Positions 3,293 to 46,925 of a stretch of 64,000 nt of DNA are shown in pieces (within the stretch, counting starts at the first letter, position 1; every line of letters begins with the position of its first letter). Under the pieces are notes generated by a model, which worked only from the letters and a program-made list of their open reading frames with translations, searched no databases and was not told the origin of the DNA. The stretch comes from an uncultured Rivularia sp. (GTDB lineage: Bacteria; Cyanobacteriota; Cyanobacteriia; Cyanobacteriales; Nostocaceae). The position numbers and the translations under genes were made by a program. Where the stretch lies: the NCBI GenBank assembly GCA_963665115.1, contig OY762007.1, positions 4,160,001 through 4,224,000 on the forward strand, read 5' to 3'.

Positions 3293-3525
3293 ATGTCACC
3301 CGTAGATAAGAAGAACACCGTCGAAGAAAGAAAGCAGCTAGTTAACGAAGTTTTAGACGCTTATCCTGAGAAAGCTAAAAAAAGACGTGCTAAGCACCTC
3401 AACGTCCACGAAGAAGGTAAGAGTGATTGTGGCGTAAAGTCTAATGTCAAGTCTCTTCCTGGTGTAATGACCGCTCGTGGTTGTGCATATGCAGGTTCCA
3501 AGGGTGTGGTTTGGGGTCCGATTAA
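3293..3525 (+). CDS. nifD: NifD fragment 1 (codons 1-78)
   Basis: MSPVDKK...[19 protein letters not shown], then diverges at repeat CGATTAA. Confidence 0.95.
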
Positions 3526-5213
3526 AAATATGTTTTATCTTTAAAATAAAATACCCTAAACTGTTTGTAGAGAACAATTTTAAGCAAATTAAATGTTCTT
3601 TACAAGCAGTTATTTTTTAGGGCATATTTAGGATGAAAAAGGTGCATCAAGAAGATTTAGATGATTTATTTGAATATTTTGAAGTTCCGGCAAGCACCGA
3701 TGGAAGCTACATGGGTACACAAGCTCAGGTGAAAGCAACGCAAGAATATATGGATAAAATAATTGAGGAGAAGCTTACAAATATAAATGCAAGACTCAAG
3801 GCGAGTCAAAGCAAGGTAAGTATTAAAAAAGTTGGAAACACTCTACAGTTAAGAGCTACTCTTCCGTTAAAACCTGGCGATACTAATAAATCGGGGAGAA
3901 CTAGAAAGCAATACTTTATCTCTTTAAGTATTCCAGCGAATTTGAACGGATTAAAAACAGCTGAAGAAGAAGCTAATGAATTAGGCACGCTGATTGCAAG
4001 AAAATGCTTTGAATGGAATGACAAATATCTAGGTATAAATACAAATAAACAGGAGTATAAAACTTTTAAGCAAGTATTAGAAACTTTAGAAAATGAATAT
4101 TTTAGTACTAGAAAAAGAACTATTAAGAGCGAGCATAGTTTTTGGCATTTGTATAAACGATATAAACAATATTTTGAATCAAATTTACCAGTTACCAGTG
4201 AAAATATCATTACAATTATTAGAAATATTGGTTCCCCGACATCTCGCGACCAAGCAATCAGAGTCGCTAGGGTATTTTCTCAAATTCATCAAATAGAAGT
4301 CAATTTCAAAAATTTAAAATTGCCTGTAGTCCCTAATGATAGGTATATACCTTCAGATATTGAAATTACAGAAGCTTTTGGAAAATATAAGGTAAAAGGC
4401 AATAATACAAAAGTAAGGAAAGACTATCGAAACTCTTGGAAGCTACACAGGTTAGTATTTGGACTAATTGCTACCTATGGTTTAAGACCGCGTGAGGTAT
4501 TTAATCAACCCGATTTAGAATGGTTTTTAAGTGATGAAAATACCGATTGTACTTGGAAAGTTCATAAGTCAAATAAGACAGGTTACAGAGAAGTTTTGCC
4601 TTTTATACCAGAATGGGTAGAATTATTTGAATTAAAAAATCCAGAGGCTATTTATTTATTGAATCAAAAAATAGAACAGATAACAAGCTTTCATGAATTA
4701 TCACACTTAGTTCAAACTAATGCTCGATGGTTTAGACGCATTCTAGATCTACCGTTTGAACCTTACGATTTAAGGCACGCTTGTGCGATTAGAGCGCATA
4801 TTCAAGGTTTACCAATCAAAGCATCAGCAGATAATTTGGGGCATTCTGTAGAAATGCATACTAAAGTCTATCAGCGTTGGTTCTCTTTAGAAAATCGCAA
4901 GAAAGTTATGAAATCTGCAATCAACAAAAAATCAGATGAACAGTTAGAAGCTGAAAATATCAGGTTAATGGCAGAAAATCAACAACTGAAATACCAATTG
5001 GATAAATTACGGCAAATTTCATCAAATATTCGCTAAAAGTTCTTCAATTAGGGTAGATTTAGGATTCATCAAACCCAAGCATAATTAGCAATTTGATTTA
5101 CTGTTTTAATTTTTAGGGAGCTTGTTTAGGGTAAATTCAGGTTACTCGACTGCGGAGGTTTGCGAAACTACTGTTATATAGATTTTTCAGCAGTCGAAGA
5201 ATATCACGATTAA
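3519..5213. mobile_element. nifD excision element 1 (1,688 bp; direct repeat CGATTAA at 3519-3525 and 5207-5213)
   Basis: Excision restores GGT CCG ATT AAG GAC ATG = GPIKDM in frame; recombinase is the only gene inside. Confidence 0.92.
3633..5036 (+). CDS. XisA/XisC-like tyrosine recombinase of nifD element 1
   Basis: YGLRPRE, YDLRHACAIR, LGHSVEMHTKVYQRWF motifs. Confidence 0.93.
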   Translation: MKKVHQEDLDDLFEYFEVPASTDGSYMGTQAQVKATQEYMDKIIEEKLTNINARLKASQSKVSIKKVGNTLQLRATLPLKPGDTNKSGRTRKQYFISLSIPANLNGLKTAEEEANELGTLIARKCFEWNDKYLGINTNKQEYKTFKQVLETLENEYFSTRKRTIKSEHSFWHLYKRYKQYFESNLPVTSENIITIIRNIGSPTSRDQAIRVARVFSQIHQIEVNFKNLKLPVVPNDRYIPSDIEITEAFGKYKVKGNNTKVRKDYRNSWKLHRLVFGLIATYGLRPREVFNQPDLEWFLSDENTDCTWKVHKSNKTGYREVLPFIPEWVELFELKNPEAIYLLNQKIEQITSFHELSHLVQTNARWFRRILDLPFEPYDLRHACAIRAHIQGLPIKASADNLGHSVEMHTKVYQRWFSLENRKKVMKSAINKKSDEQLEAENIRLMAENQQLKYQLDKLRQISSNIR

Positions 5214-10672: not shown

Positions 10673-12374
10673 ATGCAAAATAACAATCATATTAGTGAAA
10701 AATATAATAAATATTTAGAATACGAAAATCAAAGATTTAAAGAATTAGCCGAGCAAAATGTAAATAGCTGGGCTGATGTTTGGCAACAGTCAGTAGATAA
10801 ATATCCCGAAAAACCAATTGTTCGTGAAGTGGGTTCGTCAAAACCTTGGACTTATCAAGAACTTGACCGTGCAGCCAATAAAATTGCCACTTGGGCTATT
10901 TCTTTAAATCAAAATAATAAAAATAAAAATAAAAAATATATCGGAGTTCATCAAAGTAACAGTGCTGTTTTATTAGCAACTGTATTGGGATTAGCTAAAG
11001 CGGGAATTACCGCAGTTTTATTTAATGTTAGAGAATCCGAGCAGAAATTATCAACTTTAGCGTCTGATTGTGGAGTTGAAATAAATATAGGTAAACCAAT
11101 TCCATCAGTAAAGAGCTTCGATCCGAATTTAATTCTGTCAGCAGAATGGGAAGGAAGAATTTCCAAAGAGCATCGCGATCGCATTACTATAGAAGATCCA
11201 GTAGTAATTATCTTCACCAGCGGCACCAGCGGACGTAGTAAACCAGCACTTTTTAATCATCGTCGCATGATTGGAGCGGGAATTGCTTGGTCTTTAAGAA
11301 CTGAAATGACACAGGAAAGTAACTGTTATATAACTTTGCCTTTATATCACGGTAACGGTTTAGCAGTAGCTTTTGCTAGTTGTGTAGAAGCGGGAGCTTG
11401 TGCTGTAGTTAGAGAGAAATTTTCGGTACGAGCTTTTCTAGATGATGTGCGTAATTATAATTGCGATTCCGTTGTTTATATAGGAGAACTTTGGCGATAT
11501 TTAGCTAATAGTCCCCAAAAACCGGATGACAAAGATAATCCTTTAAAAGTTATTTTTGGCAATGGTTTGTCATCTGGATTGTGGGAAAATACTATTGAAA
11601 GATTTGGGATTGAAAGAGTTGTAGAACATTTTGGTGCTACAGAAATGCCAGCATCAGCTTTGACAAACTGGACGGGAAAACCTGGTTATTGTGGTTTTAT
11701 TCCTCCAAATCATCCCAATGCTGAAAATGTAGTGTTGGTTGACGAACAAGGAAAACCCGTTGCAATGGGAGAAATTGGACAAGCTTTGTTACGGGTTCCC
11801 GGCGATCGCTATCGAGGTTATCTCGACTCTTCACTTGATGAAAGTAAAATTTGGGAAAATTTATTGGAAACCGGGGGATTTATGGTGGTGTTCTGGAGAC
11901 TTGTTATCTAGAAATGCTGACGGTTTTTTTGCATTTATCGATCGTATGGGAGATACCTTTCGTTGGAAAGGAGAAAATGTTGCTTGTCAGGAAGTAGAAG
12001 AAGCAATTTTGTCAACTGGTTTAGTTAAAGAAGCGGTAGTATATGGAGTTGAGATTCCCAAAGCATCGGGTAAAGTTGGGATGGCATCTCTTTTAACCAT
12101 AGAATCTTTTTTTGAAGGTAATATTGATAATTTTTTAAATCAACTCAAAGAACTTTTACCTCCCTATGCGATTCCCCATATTATTAGATTAGTAGAACAG
12201 CATCATCAAACAACTTCTACAATGAAAATTCTTAAATCCCAATTACAGAAACAGGGATTTCAACAAATTGATAAATATCCGCATTTTATTCTTGTGGAAG
12301 GTAAGTATGTTGTTTTGACAAGAGATTATCTATCAAAGTTGGAGAATGGTAAGTTAAATTTCGGATTTCGCTAG
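10673..12374 (+). CDS. FATP/very-long-chain acyl-CoA synthetase-like adenylating enzyme (one +1 frameshift near 11870)
   Basis: IFTSGTSGRSK, TLPLYHGNG, FGATE, DRMGDTFRWKGENV; two ORFs join as LLEPGDLWWCSGD after removing one base. Confidence 0.85.
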
Positions 12375-13168: not shown

Positions 13169-15062
13169 ATGACATTCGCCAAGTCGAGCTTAAGTATATA
13201 CGATCTGCTTGAAGGTAGTGCTAAAAAAAATCCCGAGAATATAGCTATTGTAACTACTCAAAAGTCTCCTCTCACTTACAGCAGTTTGCTTAATGCTGTA
13301 AACGATGTACGAAGCAAGTTAAACCTAATGGGTATAGGTCGTAATGACCGAGTAGCTGTGGCTTTACCTAACTCCCCAGAGATGGCTGTGACTTTTTTAG
13401 CTATTGCTTCTTGTGCGACTTGTGCCCCTCTCAATCCTAATTATCGTGAATCGGAATACGATTTTTATCTTTCCGATTTAGATGCTAAAGCCTTAGTCTA
13501 TCAGTCGGGAATTGCTGAAGCTGCTGTGGAAGTAGCGAAACAAAAAGGTATTTCCTTAATAGAACTTTCTACAGAAAAAGAAGCCGTATCGGGTATTTTT
13601 CAATTGACGGTTGGGGAAGCGAAGAATCCAATTCAAAGCGGTATTGCTCAATCAGAAGATGTGGCCCTTGGTATTGCATACTTCCGGAACCACCTCTCGT
13701 CCCAAAATGGTTCCACTCACCCATAGTAATCTTTGCACCTCTGCTGAAAATATTTCCTCCACACTTAATTTAGTAGAGAATGACCGTTGTCTGAATGTAA
13801 TGCCTTTATTCCACATTCACGGACTTATAGGAGCTTTACTCTCATCGCTGAATGTTGGAGCAAGTATAGCTTGTACACCAGGATTTTACGCTCCTAATTT
13901 CTTTAAATGGGTCGAGGAATTACATCCTACTTGGTATTCAGCAGTTCCCACCATGCATCAAGCAATTTTGGCGCGGGTAGAGACGAATAGTGAAATTATT
14001 GCTAGTTCTCAAATCCGCTTAATTCGTTCTTCTTCTGCTCCTTTACCACCTCGAATAATGACAGAATTGGAACAAGTTTTTAATGTTCCGGTAATTGAAT
14101 CTTATGGGATGACAGAAGCCTCTCATCAAATGGCTAGTAATCCTCTTCCTCCCTTTATACGTAAACCTGGTTCGGTAGGGATTGCAGCAGGGCCAGAAGT
14201 TGCAATTATGGATGATACGGGTAAATTATTGTCATCTGGAGAAATTGGAGAAGTAGTAATTCGGGGAGTCAATGTTACTCAAGGTTACGAAAATAATCCC
14301 CAAGCAAACAAAACTGCTTTTACTAATGGTTGGTTTCGGACGGGTGATTTGGGTTATTTAGATAAGGATAATTATCTATTCCTCAAGGGTCGAATTAAAG
14401 AAATTATTAACCGTGGTGGGGAAAAGATTTCTCCTCGTGAAGTTGATGAAGTGCTTTTAGATCATCCAAACATTGACCAAGTTGTTACCTTTGCGGCTCC
14501 TCATACTCTTTTGGGTGAAGATGTTGCTGCTGCTGTGGTTTTAAAACAAGGTGCATCATTAACAGAACTAGAAATCAAGGAATTTGCAGCATTAAAACTA
14601 GCTGATTTTAAAATTCCTCGTGTAGTGTTATTCGTAGATGAAATACCGAAAGGTCCTACAGGTAAAAGACAGCGTATAGGTTTAGCCCAAAAATTAGGAT
14701 TAACAGCTTCCGATCCTACTGCAACTACAGAATATGCACCTCCGACAACAGCTATAGAAGAAAAATTAGTTCAAATTTGGTCTAAGGTATTAGGCGTTGA
14801 AAAGGTAGGAATTAACGATAACTTTTTCGGGTTAGGAGGAGATTCTATCTTAGCGGCTCAAATTATCAATAGAGTTCGCGAAGTTTTGCAAGTTGAGTTA
14901 TCTTTTCTAATCTTCTTTGAACAACCTACTGTTGCGAGTATGGCAATCAAAATCACTCAAAATCAGGCTGAAGAAGTAATGTCTGAAGAATTAGATGATG
15001 TATTAAACAACTTAGAATCTCTTTGCGAGTCAGAAGTTGAAAAACTGTTAGGACAGATGTAG
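13169..15062 (+). CDS. Oxalate-CoA ligase (AAE3/Pcs60)-like adenylation domain fused to a carrier protein (one +1 frameshift at CCC 13665-13667)
   Basis: LHTSGTTSRPK, VMPLFHIHGL, WYSAVPTMHQ, RSSSAPL, YGMTEASHQMASNPLP, PCP motif LGGDSIL. Confidence 0.82.
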
Positions 15063-36452: not shown

Positions 36453-36724
36453 ATGCCACAGAATCCAGATAAAATTCAAGATCACGTAGAGCTATTTCAC
36501 CAGCCTGAATACCAAGAGCTTTTCGAGGGCAAGAAGAAGTTTGAAGGTGGACACGACCCCCGAAGAAGTTAAGAAAATTGCAGAATGGACTAAATCTTGG
36601 GAATATCGCGAAAAGAACTTCAGCCGTGAAGCTTTGACCGTAAACCCTGCTAAAGCTTGTCAGCCTTTAGGAGCAATCTATGCTGCTGCTGGCTTTGAAG
36701 GTACATTACCTTTCGTCCAAGGCA
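36453..36724 (+). CDS. nifK: NifK fragment 1 (+1 frameshift in C5 run 36557-36561)
   Basis: MPQNPDKIQDHVELFHQPEY...NPAKACQPLGA...GFEGTLPFVQG. Confidence 0.93.
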
Positions 36725-38561
36725 ATAAATTTCTAATCTTGAAACACTTATAATCAGAAAAGTTTCAATCTTTTCAAGATAGCAGTTGCTTTAATCTTGC
36801 TTCTTAACTAACTATTCTTTTAATCCAAAAATCGATAAAAGTACTAATTGTAATATATAAATCAAGCTTTATTAAGTTGCTTATAATTTGCTTAATTAAA
36901 ATTGTAAATATTACAAACAAACATAATCTTTATCATGTTCGTTGAGAACAACTATGGATGTATATATAAATATTGAAGCTAAATTTAGGCTAATAATAAA
37001 AAAACAGGTCGAATAACCTGTTAATAACTACAAATATTACGCTTAGGTTAATTCATCTGTATAGTTAAACGTAATTTAGTTAATTCCAATTCTAATTCCA
37101 GGTTTCTTTTACGTAAAGCTGCTATTTCATCTTTCAATTTATCAATCCGATCAATTTCTTCAAAGGTTTGATTAAATGCTGTACGTCTATTTTCTAAGCT
37201 AAACCATCGCTGATAAGTCTTAGTATGCTCTTCCACTGTATGACCTAAATTATCAGCAGCAGCTTTAATCGGGACTCCTTGTAATTGTGCCCTAATAGCG
37301 CAAGCATGGCGTAAATCGTAAGGTACAAAGGGTATTTTTGTTGATGAGAAATATTTAGATATAACGCTAACTTTATCAGTGAGTTGTCTCTCCGAATTCC
37401 AAATAGAAAATGATTTTAATGCATCTATACCTTCAAAATCATTTTTTAAATTTAAAAGTTGAATCCACTCGGGTACGAAAGGAAAAACTTCTCTGTATCC
37501 AGTTTTATTTGATTCATGTACTTTAAAAGTATTGTAATTATTCTCGGATGACATTAACCAGTTTAAATCTGGATGATTAATTATTTCTCTAGGGCGTAAA
37601 CCGTAAATAGCTAATAGTTTATAGATAAACTTCATAGCTCTGTTTTTAGGAATAGTCTTACTACCATATCTAGATATTGTTTTTATTCTTTCATCAAACA
37701 ATGAGATTGATTTAGCTATCAGACTGTCGCTAGGTATATCTCTGTGTTTTGGCTTTTGCTTTAATTTTAAATTATTAAAACTAGCTTCAATTTGTAATTC
37801 CTGGCAAATATAATCAACAGCCCTAATTGTTTTATTCCGGGTATATGGTTCTTGTATAGATAATATTCTTTGCTTTAAAGTATCAGCGTTTATCATTTCA
37901 TCACCCATCAAAGCTTTATGAAATGAGTATCTTAAACTATGGAAAGTATGTTCGCTTTTTAAAGTTTTCTTTCTCTTGCTAAAGTATCTATCTTCTAATT
38001 GATTGTAAAATTCGTCATAAGTAATATTTTTATTTTTTAAAGCTTGTTGCCCTAAATATTTATCAGTCCACTGAAAAATGTGACGAGCGATTAACTTACC
38101 TAACTCACAAGCTTCTTCTTCAGCCGTCTTTAGCCCGTCAAAACTAGCTGGTATCCCCAGACTTATTTTATATTGCTTCTTGTCTTTAGCTTGCTTGTGA
38201 GTATCACCAGGTTTGAGTGGAAGTGTGGCGAGTAATTGTATTGCTCCTCCTGTAGCAGTCAAAGTAACCTTACACTTGCTAGCTTTTAGTCTTTGATTAA
38301 CTTCGATCAATTCCTCTTCAAATTTCATATCAAAATGTTTTTTTGTCATGTCTGAGATATTCTTCATACCTCTATAGGTTCCATCAGAAGTGCTAGGAAC
38401 TTCAAAGTCGCTAAAAACCTTGTCCTGTATGTCTTTCATAAATTTGCTTAAATATTGCTTAAAAATTGGAATGTTCTACTTGAACTAACATTATTTGAAA
38501 TAAGTTTATAGCAAACATTATAGACTTTTTAATGCTTTAAACAAACCATAGTTCCAAGGCA
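36716..38561. mobile_element. nifK excision element 1 (1,837 bp; direct repeat TCCAAGGCA at 36716-36724 and 38553-38561)
   Basis: Excision restores PFVQGSQGC. Confidence 0.93.
37048..38439 (-). CDS. XisA-like tyrosine recombinase of nifK element 1
   Basis: YGLRPRE, YDLRHACAIR, LGHTVEEHTKTYQRWF. Confidence 0.93.
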   Translation of the reverse strand: MKDIQDKVFSDFEVPSTSDGTYRGMKNISDMTKKHFDMKFEEELIEVNQRLKASKCKVTLTATGGAIQLLATLPLKPGDTHKQAKDKKQYKISLGIPASFDGLKTAEEEACELGKLIARHIFQWTDKYLGQQALKNKNITYDEFYNQLEDRYFSKRKKTLKSEHTFHSLRYSFHKALMGDEMINADTLKQRILSIQEPYTRNKTIRAVDYICQELQIEASFNNLKLKQKPKHRDIPSDSLIAKSISLFDERIKTISRYGSKTIPKNRAMKFIYKLLAIYGLRPREIINHPDLNWLMSSENNYNTFKVHESNKTGYREVFPFVPEWIQLLNLKNDFEGIDALKSFSIWNSERQLTDKVSVISKYFSSTKIPFVPYDLRHACAIRAQLQGVPIKAAADNLGHTVEEHTKTYQRWFSLENRRTAFNQTFEEIDRIDKLKDEIAALRKRNLELELELTKLRLTIQMN

Positions 38562-38586
38562 GTCAAGGTTGTGTGGCTTACTTCCG
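38553..38586 (+). CDS. nifK: NifK fragment 2 (34-bp micro-fragment, QGSQGCVAYFR)
   Basis: tc CAA GGC AGT CAA GGT TGT GTG GCT TAC TTC CG supplies exactly the residues missing between fragments 1 and 3. Confidence 0.93.
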
Positions 38587-40436
38587 ATTCAATTTAATAA
38601 TCTTTGAAATATTTAAAAATAAAACGTTGAGAAATCATATTTTGTTTCTCACTACTATTTCACTATAATTACTAGCTAGATAGACCTAATCTTCAATAGA
38701 AACAACAAACTTACTTGCAATTATTACACTATTTTTCACCTAACTATTAAATTTAACAAAATCATTGAAAATAGGAAGTATAATTAAAATTGTCTTTAAG
38801 TGAATTCAAAGAATAAATTAGTAGATTATAAATTATAGCAAGCAGTTTTTATGACCATCGAAAAAACAAAAAGTAGGCATTCTCAGCCTACTTTAAAAAA
38901 GGGTGTTAAGTTTGATAGCAAATAATCACATCATCTGAGAAAATTTAAATCTAGCTAATTCAGTTTCTAATTCAGCTATACGCTTTTTAAGACCTGTATT
39001 TTCCACTTCAAGTTCATTAAGTCTAGACATCTGATTAAAAGTTTGATTAAAAGCTTTTCTTCTATTCTCCAAACCGAACCATCTTTGATAAACTTTAGTA
39101 TGCATCTCTACAGAATGACCTAAGTTATCGGCTGCGGCTTTAATAGGTACTCCTTGCAGGTGTGCCCGAATAGCACAAGCGTGACGTAAATCATATGGAG
39201 AAAAAGAGATTCCGCAACTTTTAAAGCTACCTGCTATCTTATTTACTTTGCTAGATAATTCAATTGCAGTTCCCTTGCTAAAAGAATACTCTTTTAACAT
39301 ATGTAATCCTTTTTGATTTTTTACATCAAAAAGTTCAATCCATTCAGGTACAAACGGAAAAACTTCCCTGTATCCAGTTTTATTTGATTCATGTACTTTA
39401 AAAGTATTGTGTTCGTTTTCGGGAGATACAAGCCAATCCAGATCGGGATTATTCATCACTTCTCTAGGACGTAAACCATAAACAGCTAACAATGCATAAA
39501 CTGTTTTATACTTCAACCAATTATTTTCATATTTTTTTTGACCTTTGACTTTTTCATTAAAATGTTTTTCAAAAAAAAGTATTCCTGTTTCAATCTCTTT
39601 ATCGGTAGGTATCAATCTTTGTTGAGGTTTTGTTTTAGGTATCAAGTCTGATAAATTAGCTTTAATCCCTAATGAGTTAAGAATTATCTTACCCATAGTA
39701 ACCATTGTCCTTTTGGATGCATCATATGGTACTTTCTTAATTTTATCCCTAACTGAAAACTCTGTAATTACTTCACTCCCAGAAAAAACTGCTCTGTATC
39801 TTCTTTTGTAGCTAAGTAAAGTTCCTTCACTTTTGATAGTTCTTTTTCTCTCCGAAAAATATCTTTCCTCAAACTGTTCGTAAAACTCATCAAATGTTAT
39901 GGTCTTTTTCTTCTTCGCTTGAACTCCTAAATATTTATCATTCCAAATAAAAGTTTTACGAGCGATTAACTTTCCTAATTCCTGTGCTTCTTCTTCAGCA
40001 GTTTTTAAGCCATCGAAATTAGCTGGAATACCTAACGATATAGTGTACTGCTTTTTATCTTGACCTTTTGAATCAGTGTCACCGAGTTTCAATGGGAGAG
40101 TAGCCCGTAACTGAATAGTTCCACTCCTAGATTCTATGCTTACTTTTGTTTTACCAGCTTTCAATCGTTTATTAATTTCTGTTATTTCTTGCCCGAACTT
40201 GGCTTGTACGTGTTTACGAGTTTCACTCACGTGTCTTTTGAGTCCTAAATAACTACCGTCGGTAGTTGCTGGAGGTTCAAAGTCTTCAAAAACCTTTCCC
40301 TGTATATCTGCCATGTTTACACTAGATGTACACTAAAATATTTTCAGTTCGCTACAAACAAGTAAACAAACTTTCATTTGATCTCTGTAAACATTTTAGG
40401 TTTAATTAGACTTCTTACTCAAGTGGAATACTTCCG
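38579..40436. mobile_element. nifK excision element 2 (1,850 bp; direct repeat TACTTCCG at 38579-38586 and 40429-40436)
   Basis: Excision restores CVAYFRSHLTRHFKEP. Confidence 0.93.
38926..40314 (-). CDS. XisA-like tyrosine recombinase of nifK element 2
   Basis: YGLRPRE, YDLRHACAIR, LGHSVEMHTKVYQRWF. Confidence 0.93.
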   Translation of the reverse strand: MADIQGKVFEDFEPPATTDGSYLGLKRHVSETRKHVQAKFGQEITEINKRLKAGKTKVSIESRSGTIQLRATLPLKLGDTDSKGQDKKQYTISLGIPANFDGLKTAEEEAQELGKLIARKTFIWNDKYLGVQAKKKKTITFDEFYEQFEERYFSERKRTIKSEGTLLSYKRRYRAVFSGSEVITEFSVRDKIKKVPYDASKRTMVTMGKIILNSLGIKANLSDLIPKTKPQQRLIPTDKEIETGILFFEKHFNEKVKGQKKYENNWLKYKTVYALLAVYGLRPREVMNNPDLDWLVSPENEHNTFKVHESNKTGYREVFPFVPEWIELFDVKNQKGLHMLKEYSFSKGTAIELSSKVNKIAGSFKSCGISFSPYDLRHACAIRAHLQGVPIKAAADNLGHSVEMHTKVYQRWFGLENRRKAFNQTFNQMSRLNELEVENTGLKKRIAELETELARFKFSQMM

Positions 40437-43728: not shown

Positions 43729-43848
43729 ATGGCTATTGTCGCAACTCAAAATAAACCAGTTATAGTCAATCCTCTCAAGCAAAGCCAAACCTTGGGTGCA
43801 ACTTTAGCCTTTCTAGGATTGAAAGGTATGATACCACTCGTCCACGGT
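43729..43848 (+). CDS. nifN: NifN fragment 1 (40 codons)
   Basis: MAIVATQNKPVIVNPLKQSQTLGATLAFLGLKGMIPLVHG; absent from ORF track. Confidence 0.93.
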
Positions 43849-43962
43849 ATTCGAGGTTGACTTAAAACCCTAATATCTCGTAAACTGTTTGCCTCTAACT
43901 ATTTAGTTTAACTAATAGTTTAAGCTGAACATTTACAAGATTAGTCAATATTTAGTCAACAG

Positions 43963-45351
43963 ATGGATGATATACAGGGTAAAGTTTTTAACGATTTTGA
44001 ACCTACTTCTTATACAGACGGTAGCTACTTGGGGATGGTAAAACATAGCAAGGAATCTAAAAAACATTATGAAATGAAGTTTAAAGAAGAGTTAGTCAAA
44101 GTTAATCAGCGACTACGTTCTAGCAAAACTAAGGTAAGCATAGAATCGACTAAAGGGGCATTACAGCTTAGAGCTACATTGCCACTCAAGCCAGATGATA
44201 CTCATCCTCAAGGCAAATTGACTAAGCAATATAAAATAAGCTTGGGAATCCCCGCTAACTTTGAAGGCTTGAAAACTGCCGAGGAGGAAGCTTATGAATT
44301 AGGTAGATTGATTGCTCGTAAAATGTTTGTTTGGAATGACAAGTATTTAGGTACAAAAGCTGTTCAAAAAAACAATATTACTTTTGATAAATTTTGCGAA
44401 CAGTTAGAAGAAAGATTCTTTGAGAAAAGAAAACGTACTCTTAAAAGTGAAAATACATTTGATGGCTTCAAGTACCCTTTTAAAAAATATTTTTCTGGTA
44501 GTGAAATTATCACTATAGATGCAATAAAGAAAAGAGTACTTACCACGACACAGCCATATGTAAGGAAAAGGGCCATAGTTGCTGCTTGTTTTATATGCAA
44601 GCAATTAGACATCGAACATTCATTCAATGATCTAAAGTTGCCGCTCATTCCATCAAAAAGGAATATTCCTAGTGATGAGGAAATAAAGATATCTTTCAAA
44701 CTTTTTGATGAATACTTTACGGCATTACCTCTAAAAAGAGAACAAAGTGTTCAGAAAAATAAATTGCATAAAATAATTTATATATTAATGAGTGCATATG
44801 GATTAAGACCTAGAGAAATTTTAAATCAACCCGATATTGATTGGTTTGTATCAAAAAATAATGCTCAAAAAACTTTTAAAGTTCATGAGTCGAACAAAAC
44901 TGGCTATAGAGAGGTATTCCCTTTTATGCCTGAGTTATTGGATCTGGTTGATGTTAATTCTGACAGTGATTTGATTAATAGTTTAAGGAATGCTATTAAA
45001 TGGCAAGATATAAAGCTTTTAACCGCCAGAGTTACTGAAATAAGTAAATATTTTTCAAAAGTTGGGATACCATTTAAGCCTTACGATTTACGTCACGCTT
45101 GCGCTATTCGCGCACACCTGCAAGGAGTTCCGATTAAAGCCGCTGCTGACAATCTAGGACATTCGGTTGAAATGCACACAAAAGTTTATCAGCGGTGGTT
45201 TGGACTTGAAAACAGAAGAAAAGCTTTTGAACAAACGTTTGAAGACATAAACGAGATAGATAGATTGAGAGACGAACTAACGCGAGCTAAGCAAGAAATA
45301 GCCGATTTAAAGTTAAAATTAGCTAGGACTAAGTTAGAAAAGATGGTGTAA
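43963..45351 (+). CDS. XisA-like tyrosine recombinase of the nifN element
   Basis: YGLRPRE, YDLRHACAIR, LGHSVEMHTKVYQRWF. Confidence 0.93.
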   Translation: MDDIQGKVFNDFEPTSYTDGSYLGMVKHSKESKKHYEMKFKEELVKVNQRLRSSKTKVSIESTKGALQLRATLPLKPDDTHPQGKLTKQYKISLGIPANFEGLKTAEEEAYELGRLIARKMFVWNDKYLGTKAVQKNNITFDKFCEQLEERFFEKRKRTLKSENTFDGFKYPFKKYFSGSEIITIDAIKKRVLTTTQPYVRKRAIVAACFICKQLDIEHSFNDLKLPLIPSKRNIPSDEEIKISFKLFDEYFTALPLKREQSVQKNKLHKIIYILMSAYGLRPREILNQPDIDWFVSKNNAQKTFKVHESNKTGYREVFPFMPELLDLVDVNSDSDLINSLRNAIKWQDIKLLTARVTEISKYFSKVGIPFKPYDLRHACAIRAHLQGVPIKAAADNLGHSVEMHTKVYQRWFGLENRRKAFEQTFEDINEIDRLRDELTRAKQEIADLKLKLARTKLEKMV

Positions 45352-45381
45352 CTGCAACTCTAATCGCTATATAGCTATTTC

Positions 45382-45410
45382 AAAAGTAGGTGAAAAACAC
45401 CTATTTTTTT
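45382..45410 (+). terminator. Terminator-like hairpin after the nifN-element recombinase
   Basis: TAGGTG-aaaaa-CACCTA plus T-run; similar hairpins follow the nifK recombinases (37002-37022, 38869-38894). Confidence 0.6.
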
Positions 45411-45727
45411 GTGCTTACAACGATTTTAATAGCTAAAACTGTATTTATTATAAGTAGTAAAAATAATAAGCACGTGGATATGTATCTATTATAAAAACTG
45501 CTCAGAATGAACTATTTTGATTGTTTTTATTTTCTAAAAAATAATTAATATAATATCTATTGTCAAATTAGTAAATAATCAGTAAACAAGTAATTAAATT
45601 AATTTACTGTTTTAACTGACGTTTATCTTTTTCAGGTGATGAAAATTAGTCAATTCTTAGTCAACAGTTAATAGCTGTATGCCAGAATGCTTGAAGCAGT
45701 AATATTTTAGCTATCCTTAGTTTCGCA

Positions 45728-46925
45728 CCACGGTTCACAAGGATGTACGGCTTTCGCTAAAGTTGTATTAGTACGCCATTTTCGAGAGGCGATTCCTCTT
45801 TCTACTACGGCAATGACGGAAGTATCTACTATTTTGGGTGGAGAGGATAATGTCGAGCAAGCAATTCTAACTTTGGTGGAAAAGGTAAATCCTGAAATTA
45901 TTGGTCTTTGTACTACGGGGCTGACGGAAACTAGGGGGGATGATATGGAACAAATCCTCAGAGATTTTCGTAAAAGTCATCCTCATTTGAACGAGTTACC
46001 GATTTTGTTAGTCTCTTCACCAGATTTTAAAGGAGCCTTGCAAGACGGATATGCTGCTGCTGTAGAAAGCATGGTTCGCGAACTTCCTCAAAAAGGTGAA
46101 ATTAAAGGTTCACAAGTTAATATCTTGATAAGTTCCGCTTTTACCCCAGGGGATTTACAGGAAGTCAAAGAAATTGTTAGTGCTTTTGGATTGACTCCTA
46201 TTCTTATACCCGATCTTTCCGCCTCATTAGATGGTCATCTAGACGATTCTTGGAGTCCGATAACGGGCGGTGGTACGACTTTGAAGCAACTGCGTGAAAT
46301 GGGCAGTTCGGCTTTTACTATTGCGATCGGCGAGAGTATGCGGGGTGCAGCGGAAATTTTAGATAAACGCTTTGCAATTCCTTACGAATTATTTACAGAG
46401 CTAACTGGATTAGATGCTGTAGATAACTTTTTACAAGCGCTATCAGATCTTAGTGGTGTTAGCGTTCCAGAAAAATATCGTCGGCAACGCCGTCAATTAC
46501 AAGACGCGATGCTCGATACTCACTTTTTCTTTGGTCGCAAGCGGGTATCCTTAGCTTTAGAACCCGATCAGCTTTACACAACGGCTAATTTTATGCAATC
46601 AATGGGAGCAGAAATTCAAGCCGCAGTCACCACTACACGTTCTCCTTTACTGGAAAAACTTCCTCTCGAAAAAGTTATCATTGGTGACTTAGAAGATTTT
46701 GAGCAAGTTGCCACGGGTTCTGACTTATTAATTGGTAACTCTAACGTTAAAACAGTTGCTCGCAAGTTAAATATTCCTCTTTATCGCCAAGGTATCCCCA
46801 TTTTTGACCGTTTAGGTATAGGTCAATTTAATAAAGTTGGCTATCGAGGAACTATGCAAATTTTGTTTGACATTGGCAACGTGTTTTTAGAGCAAGAGGA
46901 AATGAGTGTTAAACACGCTCATTAA
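45728..46925 (+). CDS. nifN: NifN fragment 2
   Basis: HGSQGCTAFAKVVLVRHFREAIPLSTTAMTE...DAMLDTHF...GDLED. Confidence 0.95.

Follow-up and report, generated by a model that had tools for sequence, protein, structure and literature searches.

How did a small DNA element come to interrupt nifN at the position where a neighbouring paralogue, nifK, is also broken, and can the gene still be restored? We studied this in a stretch of 64,000 nucleotides from an uncultured Rivularia sp., referred to here as the window (Table 1). The 5′ part of nifN opens with MAIV, ends with PLVHG and meets a stop codon two codons on, and the reading frame picks up again with SQGC behind the second copy of a 7-bp direct repeat, CCACGGT, the two copies being spaced 1,886 bp apart. 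Removing one repeat copy and the insert in silico gives a nifN frame of 1,311 bp encoding 437 amino acids with no internal stops. The C-terminal part alone scores 491 bits against TIGR01285 (cut-off 326.8), and the split gene is the only nifN copy in the genome. Between the repeats lies a single long open reading frame with AT-rich non-coding ends, and the GC content is 32.1% for the element versus 41.3% for the nifN C-part. This frame reads in the direction of nifN (plus orientation) and its ATG lies 114 nt from the left core. A 1,886-bp element with its own XisA/XisC-type tyrosine recombinase is confirmed to split nifN. Upstream of the recombinase, a motif scan found a putative promoter, TTGACT-18-TAAACT (43857–43886), in a region with 8 hits versus 8.0 expected, which is chance level; similar spacing is seen upstream of 50 of 73 relative recombinases, as a raw, uncontrolled count, and a promoter role is something that we infer only.

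Table 1. Features of the nifN locus and of the related small elements in the window
Feature	Coordinates	Strand	Details
nifN 5′ part, codons 1–40 ending PLVHG, including the left 7-bp core	43729..43848	+	TIGR01285 positions 2–42
Left direct repeat, likely crossover core CCACGGT	43842..43848	+	joint 43841->45728, 7 shared letters, runs X3/X6/X9
nifN element end upstream of the recombinase, with promoter-like motif	43849..43962	+	
XisA/XisC-type tyrosine recombinase, 462 aa	43963..45351	+	invariant residues, fold match of the model, dN/dS
Right part of the nifN element, non-coding, AT-rich	45352..45727	.	no listed ORF of >=50 aa
Right direct repeat CCACGGT	45728..45734	+	repeat match and joined contigs
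nifN 3′ part, SQGC to stop, with the conserved Cys of the GSQGC motif	45735..46925	+	
Small nifD element at WGPIK/DM	3519..5213	+	cores CGATTAA 3519–3525 and 5207–5213; recombinase 3633–5036
nifK-90 element, minus type (first nifK break)	36717..38560	-	cores CCAAGGC 36717–36723 and 38554–38560; recombinase 37048–38439 (-)
nifK fragment of 26 nt flanked by the two nifK elements; codes for SQGCVAYFR, which includes the conserved Cys	38561..38586	+	
Second nifK element (residue ~99)	38579..40436	-	cores TACTTCCG starting at 38579 and 40429; recombinase 38926–40314 (-)

The match of the recombinase to PF00589 is weak and falls under the cut-off. Residues R282, K312, Y374-x-L-R377-H378, H400 and Y409 are invariant in this protein and 42 relatives, and a predicted model (pLDDT 84.5) consists of a small N-terminal beta-sheet domain, a helical middle domain, a catalytic domain and a long C-terminal helix (residues 415–461), with fold matches to XerA, lambda Int, an integron integrase and XerH (E-values 3e-5 to 7e-4). 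The protein thus resembles the lambda integrase, Xer and integron recombinases in fold, three-part layout and 7-bp core, though it is only 12–17% identical to them, carries the long C-terminal helix, and has Tyr374 where the family usually has His. XisA and XisC also have Tyr at the equivalent position. By BLASTP it is 43% identical to the XisA of the window and 58% and 53% identical to the recombinases of the first and second nifK elements, and its named relatives are mostly Rivularia, Calothrix and Richelia records. Purifying selection is seen in nifN and in its recombinase. Across the three genomes known to carry the element, dN/dS of the recombinase is 0.11–0.31, and its dS of 0.04–0.05 is near that of nifN (0.05–0.07), which fits a working gene inherited together with its host.

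A NifN profile search covered 389 genomes of the family, 385 of which matched. E-values ranged from 1e-167 to 1e-169 for split nifN genes and from 1e-173 to 1e-192 for most whole ones; 15 low scorers were inspected and the remaining genomes counted as whole on the strength of scores or listed rows, so that a split nifN in a high-scoring genus, or one masked by a second nif cluster, could escape this search. Within that scope the element is present in three of the 389 genomes (that of the window, G723 and G728), all from one small clade and all with the same CCACGGT end repeats. Of the other low scorers, some had a divergent yet whole gene, and in others the gene was truncated at a contig end, frameshifted (G440) or N-gapped (G668); in two of those inspected (G516 and G535) no nifN was found. 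Among 27 genomes of the genus, the nifN site is occupied in three, empty with an intact gene in 22 and unreadable in two. The carriers form one clade with G727, at nifN identities of 97–98.5%, in which G727 is nested and empty; precise empty alleles of nifN exist in nature. The site of the first nifK break, here termed nifK-90, is occupied in 13 of the same 27 genomes, empty in 11 and not found in three, and the occupied sites comprise five plus-type elements (recombinase in gene direction) and eight of the minus type (against it). Outside the genus, no nifK-90 split was seen in five low scorers checked, of which G685 is uninformative because its contig starts only at residue 93. A metagenome scan returned 25 loci, none with a nifN piece next to a recombinase.

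Contigs of four sequencing runs (X1–X4) cover the nifN locus, with those of X3 ending exactly at both nifN cores, and joints were sought in X3, X5, X6 and X9. A single joint, skipping 1,886 bp, was found in X3, X6 and X9, and joined nifN was not found in X5 by the same contig comparison. The depth of the joined contig is 41.6 in X3 (61.6 for the element), 8.3 in X6 and 42.2 in X9. That of X9 differs by 104 letters in the nifN C-part and so derives from another strain. The X3 contig has no differing letters and is nevertheless ambiguous, because a strain resembling G727 would look just like it. In G727 the 30-mers on either side of the empty nifN site are identical, though not the one to the left of the nifK site. 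An element-free sister strain thus explains the joined DNA equally well as excision does. No excision-circle junction occurs among the contig joints of X3, X5, X6 and X9, a comparison in which contigs drop rare variants and libraries may lose small circles. By analogy with the XisA/XisC systems, the recombinase would bind 8-bp arms flanking the core, and strand exchange across the core would free the element as a circle in heterocysts. We consider excision by the element's own recombinase very probable; its timing to heterocysts we infer from the same systems.

The earlier note on this DNA placed the nifN break (PLVHG/SQGC) and the first nifK break (PFVQG/SQGC) at equivalent codons, and BLASTP alignment of intact proteins of close relatives agrees with this. 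PFVQGSQGC of NifK and PLVHGSQGC of NifN align without gaps; the core CCACGGT of nifN thus spans the same codons as the core CCAAGGC of nifK, and the breaks fall at the same nucleotide position. The nifK-90 element measures 1,837 bp, with a repeat that extends to 9 bp (TCCAAGGCA) in the genome of the window, and the second nifK element, which breaks the gene at YFR, measures 1,850 bp. As a rough estimate, a break in a 1.3-kb gene would hit, to the base, the homologue of one of the roughly four nifK sites with a chance of ~0.3%, a figure reckoned by hand that assumes uniform breaks, with conserved motifs being favoured targets. The window also contains the classic GGATTACTCCG nifD element, and the recombinase of the small nifD element is the outgroup to the nifN/nifK radiation in our larger tree. 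All four small elements of the window do lie in the N-terminal Fe-S-ligand region of their host genes, as had been pointed out. The clustering does not extend to the radiation as a whole, in which 93 recombinases (23 without a site label) fall at about 19 labelled sites in eight genes, including nifD ~157/297/454, nifB ~418, nifE ~396, hupS ~160/204 and nifH ~11/63/92/160, these labels being automatic.

To place the nifN recombinase, a quick tree of 124 rows and a careful tree of 42 rows were drawn from 153 non-redundant sequences. In both, the nifN lineage is sister to the plus and minus types of nifK-90 together (SH-aLRT 94 and 100/95, respectively). The two nifK-90 types form a clade of their own (100/99), with the nifN lineage and a protein termed P0002 outside as sister, and the nifN recombinase is not nested inside that clade in either the 42-row or a 28-row tree. 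P0002 is the closest protein in a protein search (63%) and has no target gene assigned, which counts against the kinship with nifK-90; its context was found neither in the 389 family genomes, where the best match is 63% to the nifN elements, nor in viral contigs. With P0002 included, the 28-row tree, from which 20 of 48 rows were left out, unites it with nifN at 100/99 and the pair with nifK-90 at 93/95, and FastTree on all 48 rows gives 0.93 and 0.97 for nifN with P0002 and then for the grouping with nifK-90. On these trees, the nifK-90 recombinases are the nearest to that of nifN among elements with a known target (bootstrap 93–100). The grouping appears in residues 131–265 (99/99) and 266–425 (89/96). 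In residues 1–130 nifN is not grouped with nifK-90 and the minus type instead joins hupS-160 (97/98), so the genes seem to be mosaic. It is likely that the target-recognising and catalytic parts of the nifN and nifK-90 recombinases share ancestry, and that N-terminal parts have been exchanged among elements.

AU tests (IQ-TREE, short constrained searches, 31 rows) favour the grouping with nifK-90 and reject some of its rivals. On the full protein they reject nifN with minus-type nifK-90 alone (p=0.015) and nifN with nifH-92 (p=0.035), and keep nifN with plus-type nifK-90 alone (p=0.089) or with nifK-99, the second nifK element (p=0.15); on residues 131–425 the sole rejection is nifN with nifH-92 (p=0.016), with the minus type alone (0.17) and nifK-99 (0.16) both kept. 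Groupings of nifN with nifH-166 (0.21) and nifB-61 (0.16) are kept as well. The idea that the nifN recombinase and that of the first nifK element in the window are sisters holds for both nifK-90 orientations together, and not for the window's own minus-type lineage alone, to the extent that the full-length test excludes it and residues 131–425 do not. The second nifK element is not the sister of the nifN element in the 42-row tree. Near-exclusive residues shared by nifN and nifK-90 recombinases number 12, versus 0–8 for other lineages, and the margin in identity is thin, at 56.5–58.2% for nifN against nifK-90 and 56.5% against an unrelated lineage. Two further signs of kinship were set aside. 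The peptide segments that the earlier note regarded as distinctive of the pair are not so: in 42 related recombinases both KQYKISLGIPA and FKVHESNKTGYREVFPF appear as majority consensus, and the latter is identical in the second nifK recombinase. Likeness of element-end DNA, though striking against plus-type nifK-90, was dropped since a control over relatives ranks the nifH-92 element first, the DNA 5′ of the recombinase in the nifN element matching nifH-92 at 39 of 50 positions, plus-type nifK-90 at 33 and minus-type at 25–27.

The recombinases of the nifN and first nifK elements point in opposite directions relative to their host genes, as had been noted. This is to be expected because nifK-90 elements occur both ways. 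Both nifK-90 types have the end A(A/C)CTATGGTT directly after the 7-bp core when read in recombinase direction, and since this end is in register with the core they are one element family inserted both ways. A similar picture emerges at nifH ~63 (99/93) and nifH ~160 (92/74), where opposite-orientation elements are sister pairs. The empty nifN site, CCACTCGT-CCACGGT-TCACAAGG, compares with a plus-type nifK site of CCTTTTGT-GCAAGGT-TCACAAGG; it agrees with plus-type sites at 17–18 of 23 nucleotides and with minus-type sites at 15–17, and its right arm is identical in four of the five plus-type sites. On both strands of the 8.7-Mb genome, only 11 positions score 17/23 or more with the single plus-type site used in the scan. 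At the third residue of PL-V-HG the carriers have Val, and 16 of 21 empty alleles listed have Leu; the Val codon increases the likeness to the nifK site. Tyrosine recombinases recognise the arms of their sites, and rare exchange across a non-matching core can give rise to a new site. The core of the element is then that of the host.

A shift between paralogous sites probably brought the element into nifN. Since the DNA encoding Pro-x-Val-(Gln/His)-Gly-Ser-Gln-Gly has stayed near-identical in nifK and nifN, an ancestor with such an arm specificity could have entered either paralogue, the core then taking the sequence of the host. The nifK arms are near-palindromic and would permit entry in either direction, and nifK-90 indeed has elements of both. 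The split between the nifN and nifK-90 lineages would be old (57–58% identity) and would precede the spread of the minus type across the genus; since then the nifN element would have been inherited with its host gene and precisely lost in at least one sister genome. We hold a shared origin of the nifN and nifK-90 elements to be likely, and such an origin combined with excision by the element's own recombinase to be reasonably probable.

The earlier note had left a move between paralogues and convergence on the conserved Cys segment side by side. The move is the best reading, given the grouping of nifN with nifK-90 (100/95; 93/95), and convergence its rival. Under the latter, excision would be the same but the radiation would have struck GSQGC twice, the grouping in the tree reflecting convergence in DNA-binding residues or the swapping of domains by neighbouring elements. 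The number of sites hit by the radiation speaks for this, as does the frequency with which sister recombinases sit in unrelated genes, for instance nifK-99 with nifB-61 (98/98) and hupS-160 with nifD-454 (99/98, 42 rows); the AU tests keep other placements, and the N-terminal domain and the upstream DNA point away from nifK-90. However, two domains recover the grouping separately, on internal branches of some size, and of about 25 possible sister lineages the place is taken by nifK-90, which sits at precisely the homologous base, so that we regard an independent arrival as rather unlikely.

One may also ask whether the element is instead a selfish insert, excised without tight developmental control or still mobile and polymorphic in populations, with heterocyst timing incidental. 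The depth of the joined form in X3, with no other letters and with nifK junctions crossed unbroken, is in keeping with this, and so is the precise absence of the element from G727, nested among carriers. Precise loss of a nifD element in a near-identical strain is described in the accessible text of PMC8461463, and amplification of intact nifH1 from vegetative-cell DNA in that of bioRxiv 10.1101/629832. Yet contig depth does not equal the share of cells, one contig spans the whole element in X1, X2 and X4, and the similar divergence rates of recombinase and host gene suggest vertical inheritance over recent spread; a selfish insert seems to us improbable. A dead, non-excising remnant or an assembly artefact, leaving nifN a pseudogene, is already largely refuted and highly improbable. 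Single-base assembly frameshifts do occur in nifK (36557) and in the recombinase of the large nifD element (about 34865), but both extra bases are missing from X2, X3 and X4 contigs, the nifN element recurs in two further genomes as well as in sequencing runs from other studies, purifying selection acts on nifN and on the recombinase alike, and G723 has the nifN element together with an intact nifK.

The nifN element can be set beside known systems. Like nifD/XisA and hupL/XisC of Nostoc sp. PCC 7120 it splits a reading frame, is bounded by short direct repeats and encodes, close to one end, a tyrosine recombinase of its own, which is 40–43% identical to the XisA of the window and to hupL-type recombinases. 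Unlike them it measures 1.9 kb rather than 9–11 kb, contains a recombinase only, and targets nifN with a repeat of 7 bp, and its recombinase comes from a distinct radiation that hardly extends beyond one genus. Hilton, Meeks and Zehr (2016; PMC4874684), in the accessible part of the paper, catalogue 101 elements in 22 orthologue groups, with nifN absent and nifK variants only at nucleotides 469 and ~1277. They also report that the nifB and hupS recombinases of Rivularia sp. PCC 7116 cluster, that xis orientation is opposite within the nifD 227, nifD 895 and flv3B variants, and that same-direction xis genes lie at the element start, as in nifN; the origin of the elements and how they reach new genes are given as an open question. 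Related recombinases at different genes and orientation flips at one site are thus shared with their cases, whereas the nifN and nifK targets are paralogous and struck at the same base, which implies a sequence-level reason for the target shift.

Uesaka et al. (2024; PMC11249958) state, in the accessible text, that their strains include no insertion-bearing nifN. In their Table S4, two genomes of the genus Rivularia have nifK broken at residues 91/92, which is the first nifK site of the window (fragments 1–91 and 92 onwards) and homologous to the nifN site; it appears as fragment coordinates, and in the accessible parts the two orientations and a link to nifN are not discussed. The main texts of PMC8461463 and bioRxiv 10.1101/629832, as far as accessible, do not mention nifN, and the supplements of the latter could list further sites. 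No nifN element was found in the full-text literature searched, with subscription journals mostly outside it. The earlier note did not recall nifN among reported interrupted genes, and it is indeed absent from Table 1 and Table B of Hilton 2016 and from the accessible text of Uesaka 2024. We conclude that nifN is a new, apparently uncatalogued target gene of a known mechanism, the nifK-90 break being already in the 2024 supplement.

In the accessible parts of both surveys found, nifN alone of the six-gene core nif set (nifHDKENB) lacks a reported interruption element, so the nifN element completes the set. A broader picture, which we offer tentatively and would not yet back, is that one marine genus harbours a radiation of ~1.8-kb recombinase-only "DNA introns" reaching ever new sites in nifB/H/D/K/E/N and hupS/L. 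Retargeting would proceed by change in the core-binding and catalytic domains, N-terminal swaps and orientation flips, with nifN/nifK-90 a hop between paralogues through conserved codons and with elements still gained and lost in populations. If true, the radiation would offer, as a natural series, related recombinases together with the divergent target sites that match them. The same-base paralogue pair, with both orientations at one member, makes target shifting directly testable. Genome annotation will call such nifN and nifK genes truncated, and strains could be mis-scored as non-fixing. In the carriers, assembly of the FeMo-cofactor scaffold would depend on DNA excision.

The small tyrosine-recombinase elements to which the nifN element belongs form a radiation that is nearly restricted to the Rivularia genus (loci L031–L085 and L152–L226). 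When the protein closest to the nifN-element recombinase (P0002, 63%) was used as a query at E<=1e-150, radiation recombinases were found in 23 of the 27 genus genomes compared to one of the 362 other genomes. Their target sites, labelled automatically, number about 19 and lie in nifB/H/D/K/E/N and hupS/L. Many of these sites, for instance nifH ~11, nifE ~396 and hupL ~33, are apparently missing from the 2016 catalogue, with the same caveat that the labels are automatic. In some genomes the classic nifD-454 site, or the DNA adjoining it, holds a recombinase of this radiation rather than a canonical XisA; these recombinases are sister to those of the hupS-160 elements (support 99/98).

The two nifK elements of the window leave a short piece of the gene between them, and both must be removed to restore nifK. 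The same layout, including the piece, is seen in four other genomes (G707, G713, G721 and G728). The residue-99 site has no match among the nifK rows in the accessible parts of two surveys (Hilton 2016, PMC4874684; Uesaka 2024, PMC11249958).

In the window's genome nifH is divided into four fragments, and nifS consists of two that overlap. The hosts of its two further family recombinases gave no match to the nif/hup references used. In G728 (L031:2238–3078 region), another carrier of the nifN element, nifE too is split, near residue 185, and nifK and nifN lie about 110 kb apart; its nifN element has 322 additional bp, owing to two repeat-rich insertions within the non-coding part. Judged by eye from translations, the cargo of the large nifD element appears to include genes resembling those for an NRPS, a superoxide dismutase and a class D beta-lactamase, together with an elongation factor G paralogue.

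Lone surplus bases in homopolymers shift the frame at 36557 (nifK) and ~34865 (the large nifD element's recombinase); these are probably sequencing errors, since contigs from three public runs (X2–X4) lack them. The nifK base is also present in G727 and G728, and a fourth run, X1, matches the window there. The split ORFs at 10673–12374 and 13169–15062 may be comparable cases.

Features of the nif locus and related recombinases
Feature	Location	Detail
Classic nifD element	window 6333–36195	~29.9 kb; GGATTACTCCG repeats
nifK piece	window 38561–38586	26 nt; encodes SQGCVAYFR including conserved Cys; flanked by back-to-back elements
TTGAC-N17/18-TAAA(C/A)T motif	window 43857–43886	starts 8 nt from core
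Further family recombinases, window's genome	G000:C1:4129759–4131138; G000:C1:4667107–4668477	
Radiation recombinases at or adjoining nifD-454	L035:1361–2752; L052:1361–2752; L050:4575–5972	

The promoter-like motif of the nifN element is found again upstream of many related recombinases. If it is the xis promoter, one might speculate that binding of the recombinase to the junction could shut down the gene that encodes it.
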